64,000 bases of DNA from Candidatus Hecatella orcuttiae (GTDB lineage: Archaea > Thermoproteota > Bathyarchaeia > Hecatellales > Hecatellaceae): the NCBI GenBank assembly GCA_002011035.2, contig MTLY02000001.1, forward strand, positions 320,001 through 384,000. The letters are read 5' to 3'. The translations under genes were made by a program, and so were the position numbers. Below are positions 14,240 to 35,569 of this stretch, piece by piece. Position 1 is the stretch's first letter; the number at the start of each line of letters is the position of its first letter. Under the pieces are notes generated by a model. It searched no databases, was not told the DNA's origin, and saw only the letters and a program-made list of their open reading frames with translations.

Positions 14240-15610
14240 GTGATCGATCTTCTAGAACTTTGGAAACGCTCAGAATCAGGGCCAGAGATAGGGGAGAGAG
14301 AATTCGACATGAAGATTCTCCCCAAAAAGCTGGAGGAGCTTCGGAAGGAATATGGCATCCGCTACAACCCAGAAGAAGTAGTGTCCACCGACGCCTCCCT
14401 CGCCAAGGCTGTCTATGAAGCCGCCCTCAAGCTCCTCTGCGACGTCGGAGTTTACTGTACCGACAGCGGACGAGTCATACAGGTGTCGGAGGAAGAGGTC
14501 GAGGAAGCCCTCCGCTCAGCCTCAACCCGGCTCTTTCTGGGCGGAGGAAAGGAAAGAATCGAACTCGCAGCCCGCCGGACGGGAGACGGCCGGAGGCCGC
14601 TCATAGCCGGAGGGCCTTGCGGCTGCCCTCTTTCCGAGAAATTCTACAGAAGAATCCTGTACAGCTACGCCAAGGAAACCTCAGCGGACATCATGGTGAT
14701 GGGGCCCTTGGAAAGCTTCAAGGGAATGACCATCAAACCCCGGTCGCCCATCGAAATGGCTGCTGCGAGGACTGAGGCTGTGGAGGCTAGAGAAGCCGCC
14801 AAGGCAGCGGGCAAGCCGGGCCTGTGCATCTTCGGAGGCATCTCCGTGGTCACGGCGGCAGCCTCCAACTTCGCCGACTCCCCCGACGGGCTCAGGCCCA
14901 CAGACCTGCATGAGGTGGCGCAGTTGAACGAGTTAAAGATGAGCTGGGAAGTCTTCAACAGGATGACCCACTGCCAATACCAAGGGAACCTTGTGGCCGC
15001 GGCTCAATGCCCTGTTCTCGGCCAAGCAGGCGGACCGGAGGCGACGGCCATCCTCTGCGCAGCTGAAGCCCTGCAGGCTTTCACCCTGACACGCGGCCAC
15101 CTTTTCTGCATGGCGCCCTCCCACATGTGGACTTCGACCACCACCGACAGGGAGGACCTCTGGGTGAGCTGCTTGGTCATGCAGGCGGTTAAAGGCGTTC
15201 ACCCAGTTCCCATGGGAAGCTACATCTACTCGGCAGCCGGGCCTTGCACCGAAATCCAGTGCTACGAACTGGCAGCCCAGACGGCAACTCACACCGCCTC
15301 CGGGGCAGACCTAATCTGCTCTGCAGGAGGCACGCGGGGGACCTATGTGAACCATTACACGGGAATGGAAGCTAGGATAGCGGGGGAAATCTGCCAAGCC
15401 TCAGCCTCCCTCAGAGCAGTGGAAGTCAACGAGCTTGTGAAGGAGCTGCTGAGCCGGTATGAGGAGCCGTTGCGGATGAGGAAGGCTCCTCCGGGGAAGA
15501 GGTTTGAAGAATGCTACGACATTGAGAAGATTTCACCTTCCGAGGAATATGTAAGGCTTTGGGAAACCGTTAAGCGAGAGTTGGAAAACTTAGGTATGAA
15601 TTTTCCCTGA
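14240..15610 (+). CDS. MtmB-family methyltransferase homolog without pyrrolysine
   Basis: Collinear with MtmB (GGPCG, LNELK, AGPCTE, YTGMEAR, PPGKRFEECYD); GKPGLCIFG has Phe at the Pyl position. Confidence 0.85.
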   Translation: MIDLLELWKRSESGPEIGEREFDMKILPKKLEELRKEYGIRYNPEEVVSTDASLAKAVYEAALKLLCDVGVYCTDSGRVIQVSEEEVEEALRSASTRLFLGGGKERIELAARRTGDGRRPLIAGGPCGCPLSEKFYRRILYSYAKETSADIMVMGPLESFKGMTIKPRSPIEMAAARTEAVEAREAAKAAGKPGLCIFGGISVVTAAASNFADSPDGLRPTDLHEVAQLNELKMSWEVFNRMTHCQYQGNLVAAAQCPVLGQAGGPEATAILCAAEALQAFTLTRGHLFCMAPSHMWTSTTTDREDLWVSCLVMQAVKGVHPVPMGSYIYSAAGPCTEIQCYELAAQTATHTASGADLICSAGGTRGTYVNHYTGMEARIAGEICQASASLRAVEVNELVKELLSRYEEPLRMRKAPPGKRFEECYDIEKISPSEEYVRLWETVKRELENLGMNFP

Positions 15611-27342: not shown

Positions 27343-27359
27343 GGCTGATTTAATCAGCC
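27343..27359. terminator. Inverted repeat between convergent genes
   Basis: GGCTGATT-T-AATCAGCC. Confidence 0.35.
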
Positions 27360-27362
27360 AAG

Positions 27363-28847
27363 CTACCCGCGCGCAGCCCTGTCCGCTTCTTTGACGATAG
27401 CCTCCATGGAGGCCAACAGGTCTTTGTCGATGGGTGGAACCTGGTGAGTCTTCAAGATTTCCTTCGACTTTTGGTAGGCCAAGTAGGCTAGGTCCTTCTT
27501 GTCTGTTTTTTTCTCCCAAGTTCCTCGCATGTCCCTGTTCAGCAGCGTGGGGAAGGATTCCTCCGCGTCCATCCATTGGAGGGTGTGCTTCTTGGAGAGG
27601 AAGTTCCCCCCAACCCCCACCTCTTTTATGAGGTCTGTCGCCAAGGTGTCATCGTTCACAGAGATGCCCTTGGTAGCCCTCCGGCACATGGCTATGATAT
27701 CGTGGTCGATGATCAGCTGCTCCAAGCTGAACGTTTGACCCAGCTCCAGCATCCCAGCGCCGTAGATGGCATTGGCCCCCGCCAGCATGGGCAGGAGGGT
27801 GGTTATGGTCTTCTCGTGGGCAGCCTGCGCGTCGGGGAGCTTGGCATCAGCCTAGGTGCCTGCCACATAGCTGGGCAGCCCATAATACTGCGCAAGTTGC
27901 GAAACAGCGGCGCTTATCAGCCCCAGCTCCGGCGCTCCCACGGGTGCTGTGGCCGTCCTGAGGTCGAACATGGTGGTGGAGCTGCCGTAGATGACAGGTG
28001 CACCGGGCTCTGTCAGCTGGGCGAGGACGATGCCTGAGAGCACTTCTGCGTTATGGGTCACCAAAGTGCCGGCCAACGTCACGGGGCCTGTAGCTCCAGA
28101 CATGGCCATGCTTAGCACGTTCACCGGGATGTCGTAGCGGGCTCCTTGGATGATGACTCCGCAGGCGTTGGCGTGCAGCTGGAGGGGACTGGTGGGACAC
28201 AGCAACACGGATATGATGGGCCTCTTCCTGAAGGCTTCTTCGTCGCCTCCATAGTAGGCGACACCCATCTTGAAGTAGTACTCCATGTGCTCAGCCACCG
28301 GGTCGACGTGGTGGAAGTGTTTTCTCGTCCCCACCCAGGAAGTGAAGGTTTCGTGGACGTCCGAAGCCAAGCCTTCCATCAGAAGCTCTCTGGCTGCACA
28401 GGGCAGGGAGAAGAAGTCGATGGTGGAGCACCAATCTGCAAGGACAGCGGCTTCATAGACGTCTTGATTGTTCGACTCTCGAATGGAATTGGTTTCATAT
28501 TCGTAGGTGTACAGCCCCGTGCCGAAGGTAGTGTTACCCACTTTTCTTCCAGCCTCTAGAAGCACGTCGCTTCCCTTTTCACGGCCGGCTAAAAGGACTC
28601 GGCCGGGACACTTGTGGAGGGCGTCCTTAACGATGTGCTCAGGAATCCTCACCATGCGTTTCACCGGGTCAACGTCACATCCTCCCTTTTTGAAGATTTC
28701 CAAAGCCTCTTCATGGTAGACTCCAACTCCGCTGGTCTTCAATACGTCCATCGTCTCCGAGTTGATGCGGTCTAGGGCGTCTCTGGAAAGTAGCTCCAAC
28801 CTAGCTCCTTGAACCATGTCAAGTCCGGCGAAGAGTTTCACTGGCAT
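27363..28847 (-). CDS. mttB: Trimethylamine methyltransferase with pyrrolysine (in-frame TAG 27854-27852), ~494 aa
   Basis: YGLPSYVAGT-TAG-ADAKLPDAQAAHEKT...GANAIYGAGMLE; ATG 28847 after GGAGGTGA; final stop is also TAG. Confidence 0.95.
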
Positions 28848-28913
28848 TGCATTTTTCACCTCCCTTTTTTCTGGGTATTTGTTTCATCACGCCCCTCCTC
28901 GGCGCTCGATGAG

Positions 28914-28977
28914 TGTACCCTTCAAGCATCTCCGCCCCTCATCAACATGGTTCAGGGCAGCGGCTTGGCTGAAGGGT
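28914..28977 (-). ncRNA. Box H/ACA-type guide in mttC-mttB spacer; pocket resembles mttB amber context
   Basis: ACCCUUCAG/UUGAAGGGU then ACA; CUGCCCU-GA / GA-GGGGCGG K-loop; pocket CCAAGCC + GAUGC. Confidence 0.8.
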
Positions 28978-28993
28978 TAAACCGGATGATGGG

Positions 28994-29644
28994 TCATTTC
29001 TTTTCCAGAAGTTCTTTAGCCTTGTTCACAGCGTCGACAGCATCTTCTCCTCGAGCGTCAGCACCGATGACTTTAACCCAGTCAGCGGTAACCGGCGCGC
29101 CTCCGACCATGTAGACTACTTTGTCCCTGATGCCTGCCTTCTTCAACTCTTCAGCCAAAGTCTTCTGCTCAGGCATGGTGGTAGTCATGAGGGCAGAAGC
29201 GCCGACGATATCAGCGTTGACCTCTTTGGCCTTGTCTACGATGGTTTTAGCCGGTATGTCGCGGCCTAGGTTGAACACTTGGAATCCGGCGGCCTCCATC
29301 ATCACGGCGACGATGTCTTTTCCTAGGTCGTGAACGTCTCCGAGGACTGTGGCTATCACTACTTTGCCTAGGTATTTTCTTTCCTTTCCCGCCTGAAGCT
29401 TAGGCGTCAGCATGACTATCGCTTCCCTCAGAGCATCAGCCGCCATCATGACGTGAGGGAGGTAGAGTTCACCTTTCTGGAAGGCTTCCCCTATCTTCCG
29501 CATTTCTTCGGTGCTGGCGTCGATGGCCGCTAAAGCGTCTATGTCAGACTCGAGGATCTTGTTCACGACAGCCTTCGTGGCTTCCACGTCACCTTCGCGG
29601 ATCGCTGCGCACAATTTACGCAATATTTCTTCTTTTTCAGCCAT
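28994..29644 (-). CDS. mttC: Trimethylamine corrinoid protein
   Basis: GDVHDLGK, SALMTTT, MVGGAP; upstream of mttB. Confidence 0.88.
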   Translation of the reverse strand: MAEKEEILRKLCAAIREGDVEATKAVVNKILESDIDALAAIDASTEEMRKIGEAFQKGELYLPHVMMAADALREAIVMLTPKLQAGKERKYLGKVVIATVLGDVHDLGKDIVAVMMEAAGFQVFNLGRDIPAKTIVDKAKEVNADIVGASALMTTTMPEQKTLAEELKKAGIRDKVVYMVGGAPVTADWVKVIGADARGEDAVDAVNKAKELLEKK

Positions 29645-29861
29645 AGGAGAACAACCCCTGTCGTTTCACCCCCAACTAGTAAACATTGTTTGCATTAAAA
29701 AATTTTTCCAGCTACTACTTTTCTGGTAGCGGGGAAGCGGCAGAAAAATTGAGCGGTTTAAATAATTAATGTAAGCAGATTCAAAAAAATCTCTGATTTA
29801 GATAAACCAATTTATAGGGGAAAGATAAAAGTACAAATTGGTGAACTGCGAAAAAATTGAT

Positions 29862-29929
29862 GGGGGATCGGCCGGGGGGCCACAAGAGTTCTAACCTCTT
29901 GGAGCCGGGTTCGACTCCCGGATCCCTCG
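29862..29929 (+). tRNA. pylT: tRNA-Pyl (anticodon CUA at 29891-29893)
   Basis: GGGGGAU/AUCCCUC acceptor, single C linker, GGCC-GGGG-GGCC D arm, 6-bp CAAGAG/CUCUUG anticodon stem, 3-nt variable loop, CCGGG-UUCGACU-CCCGG, G discriminator, no encoded CCA. Confidence 0.95.
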
Positions 29930-29969
29930 GCACAGGAAAAGGGCTTATTTAAAATCTATGTGAGCTTCC

Positions 29970-35507: not shown

Positions 35508-35569
35508 TGTCTCTTTTACCCTTTAGCACACCCTCATGCTCAGTCGGGCATGCGGGTTTGGTAAAAGAG
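35508..35569 (-). ncRNA. Box H/ACA-type guide in mtmC-mtmB spacer; pocket core matches mtmB amber context
   Basis: CUCUUUUACC/GGUAAAAGAG then ACA; GCAUGCCC-GA / GA-GGGUGUGC K-loop; pocket AAACCC + UAAAG. Confidence 0.8.

Follow-up and report, generated by a model that had tools for sequence, protein, structure and literature searches.

The spacer between the corrinoid protein gene mttC and the methyltransferase gene mttB of Candidatus Hecatella orcuttiae contains a stable stem-loop that exhibits the geometry of an archaeal H/ACA guide RNA and is followed directly by ACA, and for which we find no credible target. Its pairing with the in-frame amber codon of mttB, which the original prediction had taken for the target, is no better than chance, and guidance to this codon is unsupported. 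On balance, we lean towards reading the element as a cis-acting intercistronic stem-loop of H/ACA shape and not as a guide.

Genomic context

The host genome comprises 1.75 Mb in 3 contigs and scores 1417 bits with the archaeal SSU model against 1033 bits with the bacterial one. A genome search shows that Cbf5 (TruB_N), Nop10 and Gar1 are all encoded, so that H/ACA particles are expected in this organism. The window, that is the whole stretch of 64,000 nucleotides analysed here, corresponds to C1:320001-384000, and the positions given below are those of the window unless a contig is named. It harbors a tRNA-Pyl gene with the anticodon CUA (29861..29931, plus strand) upstream of pylS, pylB, pylC and pylD, which lie on the plus strand and adjoin the mttC-mttB operon. 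The mttC gene (28994..29644, minus strand) exhibits the Pfam domains B12-binding (1.2e-27) and B12-binding_2 (1.3e-13), and ends with a TGA stop codon at 28996-28994. The mttB gene (27354..28847, minus strand) belongs to the MTTB family. It exhibits an in-frame TAG for pyrrolysine at 27854-27852, and the Rfam family PYLIS_3 matches it at 27755-27854 with 79.2 bits. A second TAG of mttB is found at 27365-27363, followed by CTT GGC TGA. From the sequence and from a comparison of the N-terminus with another mttB locus (L029), the start codon is likely the ATG at 28847-28845, preceded by a Shine-Dalgarno sequence GGGAGGUGA (28856..28864, minus strand). Farther along the window are mtmC-mtmB on the minus strand and mtbC-mtbB on the plus strand, with one in-frame TAG per methyltransferase.

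TAG is a common stop codon in this host, not a rare one: of the 1363 crude ORFs with 150 codons or more, which are rough gene calls, 363 end in TAG. Context-specific help for the read-through of particular TAG codons would thus make sense. A genome search found no internal stop codon in the other MttB-family genes of the host. Within the family and order (14 genomes, host included), only the host has a pyl-type mttB. Similarly, a pyl-type mtmB is found in the host only, being absent from all 160 other sampled genomes of the class (161 including the host). This lack of close relatives is consistent with a recent acquisition of both genes.

Structure of the spacer hairpin

The mttC-mttB spacer is 146 nt long; folded as a whole, over 137 nt, it has a z-score of -2.72. 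The stem-loop (28917..28977 without its ACA, minus strand) is unique in the genome by blastn and folds stably. The 70-nt stretch containing it exhibits a minimum free energy (MFE) of -27.0 kcal/mol and a z-score of -2.77, with 2 of 200 shuffled sequences being as stable. The lower stem (H1) consists of 8 bp between the 5' strand ACCCUUCA (28970..28977, minus strand) and the 3' strand UGAAGGGU (28917..28924, minus strand). Seven of these pairs have probabilities of 0.92-1.0 and are firm at 60 and 75 °C too, the innermost A-U pair having a probability of 0.56. The trinucleotide ACA (28914..28916, minus strand) stands directly 3' of this stem, 15 nt from the upper stem. The folding and the geometry thus bear out one part of the original prediction, namely the existence of a stem-loop with a flush ACA between mttC and mttB.

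Above the lower stem, the structure can adopt two forms. The 5' pocket strand is GCCAAGCCG (28961..28969, minus strand) in the alternative fold and GCCAAG in the MFE fold; the 3' pocket strand is AGAUGCU (28925..28931, minus strand). In the MFE fold the first GC of the 5' pocket strand pairs with 28926-28927, and the two resulting G-C pairs extend H1 with a probability of 0.81 at 37 °C and 0.54 at 75 °C. The pocket measures 4 x 4 nt in this fold, and its strands become 6-9 and 7 nt long once those G-C pairs open. The MFE upper stem is composed of CCGC/GCGG and CCCU/AGGG (4 bp + 4 bp) separated by a 2-nt UG bulge. In the alternative register, CUGCCCU (28954..28960, minus strand) pairs with GGGGCGG (28932..28938, minus strand) over 7 contiguous bp, two of which are G.U. 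The alternative fold has energies of -24.2 and, with the pocket open, -22.0 kcal/mol, against -26.7 and -22.8 kcal/mol for the MFE fold; the penalty for the alternative stem is thus +2.5 kcal/mol, or +0.8 kcal/mol with the pocket open. The apex (28939..28953, minus strand), composed of GA, an 11-nt loop and GA, resembles a K-loop and sits flush on the alternative upper stem. The MFE and alternative folds alike place the ACA 15 nt from the upper stem. Since the MFE structure contains Watson-Crick pairs only, the hairpin folds on either strand. By inspection of the sequence, no T run follows the hairpin and no AT-rich box precedes the leader element described below.

Several of these features argue for an element acting in cis. 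The fold is stable and more ordered than shuffled sequences, and it separates, on the sense strand, two genes of a single and presumably co-transcribed operon, with no T run behind it.

Comparison with archaeal H/ACA RNAs

The RNAMOT-style descriptor given in Muller et al. 2008 requires an H1 of at least 7 bp, an H2 of at least 5 bp and loop strands of 5-11 nt (PMC2377435). It further includes an apical loop of 8-35 nt and an ACA flanking H1 (PMC2377435). In archaeal H/ACA sRNAs, an ANA, usually ACA, flanks the 3' side of H1 (PMC2377435). The ruler from the ANA to the target U is 14-15 nt, or 14-16 nt according to PMC11077068. The mtt hairpin matches the descriptor. Its H1 length, its flush ACA and its ruler all lie within these published values (H1 of at least 7 bp, ruler of 14-16 nt), and its pocket strands reach 5-11 nt only with the two G-C pairs open. 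The upper stem departs from the published pattern. The GA motif is located 7 bp above the pocket and 22 nt from the ACA, against 5-6 bp in the functional motifs of Pyrococcus, where 7 bp is inactive (PMC2377435; PMC7991803); specifically, a 7-bp version was non-functional in Pyrococcus abyssi (PMC2377435). The H2 of the mtt hairpin can be read as 6 bp only with a 16-nt ruler. The GA...GA of the apex, flush on the alternative H2, encloses a loop of 11 nt. The K-loop, a motif of tandem sheared G.A pairs to which L7Ae binds, is described with a 7-nt loop in PMC7991803. A K-loop at this apex is plausible from the modelled fold. Judged on the predicted structures, the outline of a single-hairpin H/ACA guide holds up.

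Searches with existing RNA models gave no further indication. No Rfam family matches the spacer at E-values up to 10. The HgcF and snoR9 models gave nothing useful genome-wide, and they also remained below the cut-off in archaeal control genomes. De novo candidates for the host's own rRNA guides, sought as positive controls and including C2:298898-298961, C2:330043-330118 and C1:494176, could not be validated as true guides, and the first two are not conserved in the family at the DNA level.

A sister hairpin in the mtmC-mtmB spacer

A second hairpin of the same shape is found in the mtmC-mtmB spacer (35508..35569, minus strand). Its 10-bp lower stem is flush with an ACA, 15 nt separate this ACA from an 8-bp upper stem, and the apex consists of GA, 8 nt and GA. 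In an alignment of the mtt and mtm hairpins, 37 of 85 columns are invariant. Little sequence is thus common to the two, and what is shared is the geometry. Of the 14 corrinoid-protein paralogues, only mttC and mtmC have a long, hairpin-bearing spacer of this kind behind them. This links the hairpin to the architecture of these operons, and again speaks for an element acting in cis. Two mtbC-like genes are followed immediately by an mtbB-like frame, with no such hairpin; one of these junctions is in the window, where the frame exhibits an in-frame TAG, and the other is on C3.

Such hairpins are ordinary in this genome. A hairpin of comparable class is present in 377 of the 1936 intergenic strands, and on the sense strand of 42 of the 414 co-directional spacers of 50-200 nt, the latter count being in keeping with a cis-acting intercistronic element. 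Against this stands the near equality of sense and antisense hairpins in the co-directional spacers (111 and 101, respectively, n = 538), so that the presence of a hairpin alone says little about a function at the RNA level. ACA follows 10 of 589 hairpin configurations, where 9.2 are expected, and the combination of hairpin and ACA is therefore not a selected class in general. The overall frequency of hairpins (377 of 1936 strands) and that of the following ACA would suit a palindrome that is present by chance or as a relic and has no function of its own, such as a leftover of operon assembly. The purely Watson-Crick MFE structure, foldable on either strand, would suit it too, as would the absence of the spacer from the nearest mttC-mttB loci (see below). 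The same holds for the lack of close pyl-type relatives (none for mttB within the family and order, 14 genomes; none for mtmB among 161 sampled genomes of the class), in line with a recent acquisition.

We nevertheless regard a chance or relic palindrome as rather improbable, given that the same special geometry is found in two paralogous operon spacers. A strict descriptor that leaves the box free asks for 7 bp or more in H1, a pocket, 5-8 bp in H2, GA...GA placed flush and a 14-16 nt ruler; it retrieves 84 loci in the genome. At the box position of these loci, ACA occurs more often than any other triplet (5 observed against 1.3 expected). Eleven of the loci are intergenic, and the two of them that end with ACA are exactly the mtt and mtm hairpins. 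If the 10 loci with hairpin and ACA were placed at random over the 1936 intergenic strands, the probability of hitting both the mtt and the mtm strand would be about 3e-5. This coincidence is hard to explain by chance, and it keeps an H/ACA-like reading of the two hairpins alive. It is also the main difficulty for the cis-acting stem-loop that we prefer: a plain stability hairpin leaves the flush ACA, the 15-nt ruler and the GA...GA of both hairpins unexplained.

Pairing with the amber codons

The pairs counted in the original prediction are indeed present at the amber codon of mttB. Upstream, five of six pairs can form, one of them G.U, the sixth position being a C.A mismatch; four consecutive pairs follow downstream, and the ACA is 14 nt away. 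In this register the 5' guide ends with ..CCAAGCC and the 3' guide starts with GAUGCU; it needs the alternative upper stem, which is not the MFE one, and in addition to the UA of the target, a guide nucleotide stays unpaired on either side of the stem. However, the conclusion that the pocket is aimed at the amber codon is not supported: the pairing exists in a non-canonical register only and is matched by four other U of the same mRNA. The contiguous score of the amber site is 0 in all three canonical registers, which use the MFE stem, the alternative stem and the latter shortened to 6 bp. With permissive scoring, which covers 25 registers and allows one mismatch, the score of the amber site is reached by 5 of the 288 U in the mttB mRNA, the amber U included.

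Shuffled guide arms equal the permissive score at the mttB amber codon in 1.6% of 20,000 trials (1.9% of 5,000); if a match at any of the window's three amber codons is counted, the share is 21.7%. When the amber-pairing register alone is considered, 569 of the 841,536 U sites in the genome do equally well. The predicted duplexes between guide and target are weak, with -3.8 and -5.5 kcal/mol at 37 °C. Counted from the target U, the mismatch falls on the second pair, within the 3' guide helix, which Muller et al. 2008 described as more important than the 5' one (PMC2377435); the same work found no activity for a 3' helix of 4 bp that included two G.U pairs (PMC2377435). The downstream-pairing GGCU sits in UAGgCuGA, the start of the PYLIS_3 consensus, and hence belongs to a conserved coding context which is not peculiar to mttB. 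A separate 10-nt complementarity between the 5' arm of the hairpin and the 3' end of mttB (GCUUGGCUGA) was discarded, about 0.2 such matches being expected by chance between spacer and mRNA.

With its own amber context, the sister hairpin forms 3+3 pairs in a canonical register, and of 267 U the amber U alone is paired in this way. Shuffled arms reach this canonical score with P = 0.12. The permissive score of the mtm hairpin has P = 0.48, with 20 of the 267 sites being tied.

A guide for pseudouridylation of the U of the mttB UAG, favouring read-through or pyrrolysine insertion, would be attractive in several respects. Both H/ACA-shaped hairpins lie just upstream of genes with an in-frame UAG, in a host where TAG is a common stop codon. 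The permissive pairing at mttB has P of about 0.02 and the mtm hairpin singles out its own amber codon. Yet the same measurements weigh heavily on the other side: no canonical pairing at mttB, a mismatch close to the target U in the guide helix that matters more, four tied U, P = 0.22 over the three amber codons, mtm scores within reach of shuffled arms, and weak duplexes. Furthermore, the mtbC-like genes reach their mtbB-like frames without a hairpin, even where the frame exhibits an in-frame TAG, and the nearest mttB genes of other genomes do without one. We therefore hold amber guidance by this hairpin to be extremely improbable.

A broader form of the idea is that both hairpins recruit Cbf5-Nop10-Gar1-L7Ae and either pseudouridylate the amber codons through short non-canonical pairing or mark the mRNA for pyrrolysine read-through. 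We judge it very improbable as well. If true, it would be the first natural case of RNA-guided stop-codon recoding, and an archaeal H/ACA particle would for the first time have an mRNA as its target.

Search for other targets

The original prediction allowed for a better target elsewhere, such as another mttB paralog, or for an rRNA site matched in an alternative register; our searches found neither. An H/ACA guide is expected to form two duplexes with its rRNA or tRNA target, one on each side of an unpaired UN. We scanned the 16S and both 23S rRNA copies in eight registers, and no target with at least 8 contiguous pairs was found in the canonical registers. The best rRNA matches were 4+5 with two G.U pairs, in an insertion of the 23S copy on C3, and 5+3. 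No target was found in the 43 tRNAs, tRNA-Pyl included, the best match being 3+5. An in-frame UAG target was found in none of the registers tried. The genome-wide search for sites resembling GCAUC-UAG-GCUUGG gave no better target. Its best UAG-containing match, UCUCC-UAG-GCUUGGU at C3:378925, lies within a pyrB-like gene but outside its reading frame. More generally, the top genome-wide matches either run antisense to ORFs or coincide with unremarkable sense codons, at the level expected by chance.

The hairpin could still be a genuine H/ACA-type guide, or an RNA that forms an RNP, cut from the operon transcript and having its target outside the RNAs examined. The host encodes Cbf5, Nop10 and Gar1, the hairpin passes the descriptor of Muller et al. 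2008 (PMC2377435), ACA is in excess at the box position of the strict-descriptor loci with only the mtt and mtm hairpins among the intergenic ones, and these two hairpins are alike in geometry and little in sequence. On the other side, the MFE structure has a 2-nt bulge in its upper stem and a pocket of 4 x 4 nt, and the GA motif is at the 7 bp found inactive in Pyrococcus (PMC2377435; PMC7991803). In addition, no rRNA or tRNA target was found in the searches above, there is no Rfam match, and the spacer is kept at no other mttB locus examined. We take an orphan guide or RNP-forming RNA to be possible, if doubtful. The absence of a guide target in the rRNAs and the 43 tRNAs, together with the chance-level matches genome-wide, is what one would expect of a cis-acting stem-loop.

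Comparison with other genomes

The comparison of orthologous spacers, which the original prediction had also proposed as a check, yielded no locus that keeps the spacer. It covered 14 genomes of the family and order, 12 loci on genome contigs and 26 loci on metagenome contigs. At the nearest mttB loci (62-79% protein identity), the spacers are 0-35 nt long or mttC is absent upstream, and there is no hairpin. The locus with 62% identity (L016) has a spacer of about 35 nt, mttC abuts mttB at the two loci with 64-65% (L031 and L032), and mttC is absent upstream of mttB at the locus with 79% (L029). At two further loci (L028, 77%; L030, 84%) the contigs end before or at the start of mttB. That the closest mttB loci do without the hairpin counts against a cis-acting role as well as against a guide. 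Contigs from the X6-X9 DNA runs cover parts of the window, and their letters are identical with no variants.

The leader element

A second element, GA-GCGCC-GAGGAGG-GGCGU-GAU-GA-AACAAAUACCCA (28872..28907, minus strand), occupies the spacer directly 3' of the hairpin. It is a K-turn-like hairpin with a Shine-Dalgarno-like loop, and it stands between the ACA and the Shine-Dalgarno sequence of mttB. Among 401 sampled genomes of the phylum, this leader has 11 matches in 10 other genomes, which belong to three families (f21, f33 and f6). The matches exhibit 82-90% identity over 34-50 nt, ten of the 11 having 88-90% over 34-39 nt. A 16-nt core is present with at most 2 changes in 11 of the 12 loci fetched, and the genes that follow are different and unrelated. 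Contigs of other organisms in three metagenome runs likewise match the 36-nt leader with 2-5 differences, within unlike flanking sequences. In one genome (G116), the leader lies about 35 nt after a TATA-like box, and we read it there as the putative 5' end of an mRNA.

The K-turn is described as a 3-nt bulge with G-C pairs on one side and two sheared G.A pairs on the other (PMC7991803). The leader segment 28907-28884, which reads GA / GCGCC-loop-GGCGU / GAU / GA, appears to fit this pattern as written. The K-turn-like layout is kept in 10 other loci. The first GA is AA in six loci of family f21, and in one of these six the letters before the core are AT. No covariation is seen in the leader because its stem is nearly invariant. 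A box C/D reading of the leader (GUGAUGA with a 12-nt guide) was rejected, as no rRNA complementarity of at least 10 nt was found. Being conserved across families before unrelated genes, the leader may have a more general regulatory role in this phylum.

The leader also bears on the hairpin. Its recurrence before unrelated genes, and its apparent position at an mRNA 5' end in G116, lend support to a cis-acting hairpin that stands just before it. The spacer may then be composed of two modules, an H/ACA-shaped stem-loop closing the mttC cistron and a K-turn-like leader opening the mttB cistron. The hairpin would act in cis on the mttC-mttB transcript, with or without a bound protein, by blocking exonucleases or by marking a processing site. 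The mttB message would then begin with the K-turn-like leader, and the mttC and mttB messages could have separate lifetimes and translation rates. In view of the H/ACA outline, Cbf5-Nop10-L7Ae are possible binders of the hairpin.

Relation to known systems

The mtt hairpin resembles the archaeal single-hairpin H/ACA sRNAs, such as the Pab/Pf RNAs of Pyrococcus and sR115 and sR435 of Sulfolobus islandicus, in its flush ACA, internal loop, 15-nt ruler and tandem GA...GA apex, and in belonging to a host with Cbf5, Nop10 and Gar1. In contrast to them, it has no rRNA or tRNA target, its GA motif is at 7 bp instead of 5-6, and it sits between the cistrons of a protein operon. PMC7991803 leaves it undecided whether archaeal H/ACA particles act on RNAs other than rRNA. 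A full-text search gave no publication that treats pyrrolysine and H/ACA together among the matches listed, which does not prove that the combination is unpublished.

It is a long-standing question how UAG can specify pyrrolysine in a small number of genes and still terminate many others. A natural guide RNA marking the amber codon would answer it and would give archaeal H/ACA RNAs their first mRNA target, but this is unsupported for mttB. In yeast, an engineered H/ACA guide reportedly directed pseudouridylation to a stop codon with full complementarity and thereby led to read-through (Karijolich and Yu 2011, cited in PMC7991803). The idea of a pseudouridine on the U of a stop codon is the same here; the pairing is not, as the mtt hairpin offers none in the canonical registers and 5/6 + 4 pairs at best, where that design had full complementarity.

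The small RNA sR666 of Sulfolobus islandicus has a potential K-turn hairpin and binds L7Ae and Cbf5-Nop10 (PMC11077068). As it exhibits no single-stranded regions for substrate binding, it represents a binder of H/ACA proteins without a guide job (PMC11077068). The mtt hairpin differs from this separate small RNA, whose binding was found by experiment, in being intercistronic, in having pocket strands and in that any binding of such proteins is putative.

Finally, intercistronic stem-loops set differential mRNA stability in operons. The mtt hairpin is like them in being a stable spacer hairpin between co-directional genes of the same pathway with no T run. It is unlike them in that they have no reason to carry a ruler-spaced ACA or a GA...GA apex. 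The remaining oddity is that just two intergenic hairpins of this genome combine the H/ACA and K-loop shape with an ACA, and that both are located in the spacers of pyl-type methyltransferase operons.

The leader of mttB

Directly 5' of the mttB Shine-Dalgarno sequence, on the minus strand, lies a 36-nt leader (28872-28907) that reads GA-GCGCC-GAGGAGG-GGCGU-GAU-GA-AACAAAUACCCA. Counterparts of this leader occur in 10 other genomes, which belong to three families of the phylum; identity is 82-90% over 34-50 nt and in most cases 88-90% over 34-39 nt. Three metagenome runs also contain copies, on several other contigs. The genes downstream of the copies in the other genomes, including loci L069-L078, are unrelated, encoding secreted proteins and small ORFs. 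The layout of the leader is consistent with a K-turn, with a Shine-Dalgarno-like loop. Because of these two features, the sequence may represent an L7Ae-dependent translational leader. In the loci L071-L076, all from one family (f21), the conserved leader is preceded, at a distance of about 70 nt, by sequence with box C/D-like motifs (UGAUGA and CUGA); these motifs suggest a small RNA gene directly upstream of it.

The mtm spacer hairpin and the end of mttB

A hairpin of the same geometry as that of the mttC-mttB spacer is located in the mtmC-mtmB spacer (35508-35569, minus strand). Its lower stem is 10 bp long with a flush ACA, its 8-bp upper stem includes two G.U pairs and stands 15 nt from the ACA, and its apex is composed of GA, 8 nt and GA. 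The mtmB amber context forms 3+3 pairs with this hairpin in the canonical register, and no target was found for it when rRNA and tRNA were searched.

The mttB gene terminates in a second TAG, after which the reading frame continues as CUU GGC UGA (27354-27365, minus strand). Next come a hairpin (GGCUGAU/AUCAGCC) and a U run, the GGCUGAU being the same heptamer that occurs 3' of the internal amber codon. On the minus strand, the 5' arm of the mttC-mttB hairpin (UCAGCCAAGC, 28962-28971) is a perfect 10-nt complement of the mttB 3' end (GCUUGGCUGA, 27354-27363); by an arithmetic estimate, about 0.2 such matches between spacer and mRNA are expected by chance. TAG terminates 363 of the 1363 crude ORFs and so is commonly used as a stop in this genome, which uses pyrrolysine.

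Two MtmB-family homologues, one at 14240-15610 (plus strand) and one on contig C3 (606347-606922), contain no internal stop and share 37-39% identity with the pyrrolysine-type MtmB across its first 204 residues. Both are non-pyrrolysine paralogues beside the pyrrolysine-type gene.

rRNA genes and a candidate atypical guide

The 16S gene (C2:464353-466521) is 2169 nt long for a model of 1478 positions, and of the two 23S copies the one on C3 (827-4683) measures 3857 nt and the one on C2 3190 nt. Large insertions, which are possibly introns, are thus present in the rRNA genes.

A scan without lower-stem requirement yielded, as the top rRNA match of 106, a hairpin at C1:494176 (plus strand). Its apex is a flush GA...GA, and its flanks (9+8, with 2 G.U) are complementary to 16S position 1808. 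It lacks an ANA at the ruler distance, the spacing from upper stem to box in H/ACA RNAs. Atypical H/ACA-like guides have been described in Pyrobaculum and Sulfolobus, and this hairpin might be a guide of that type.
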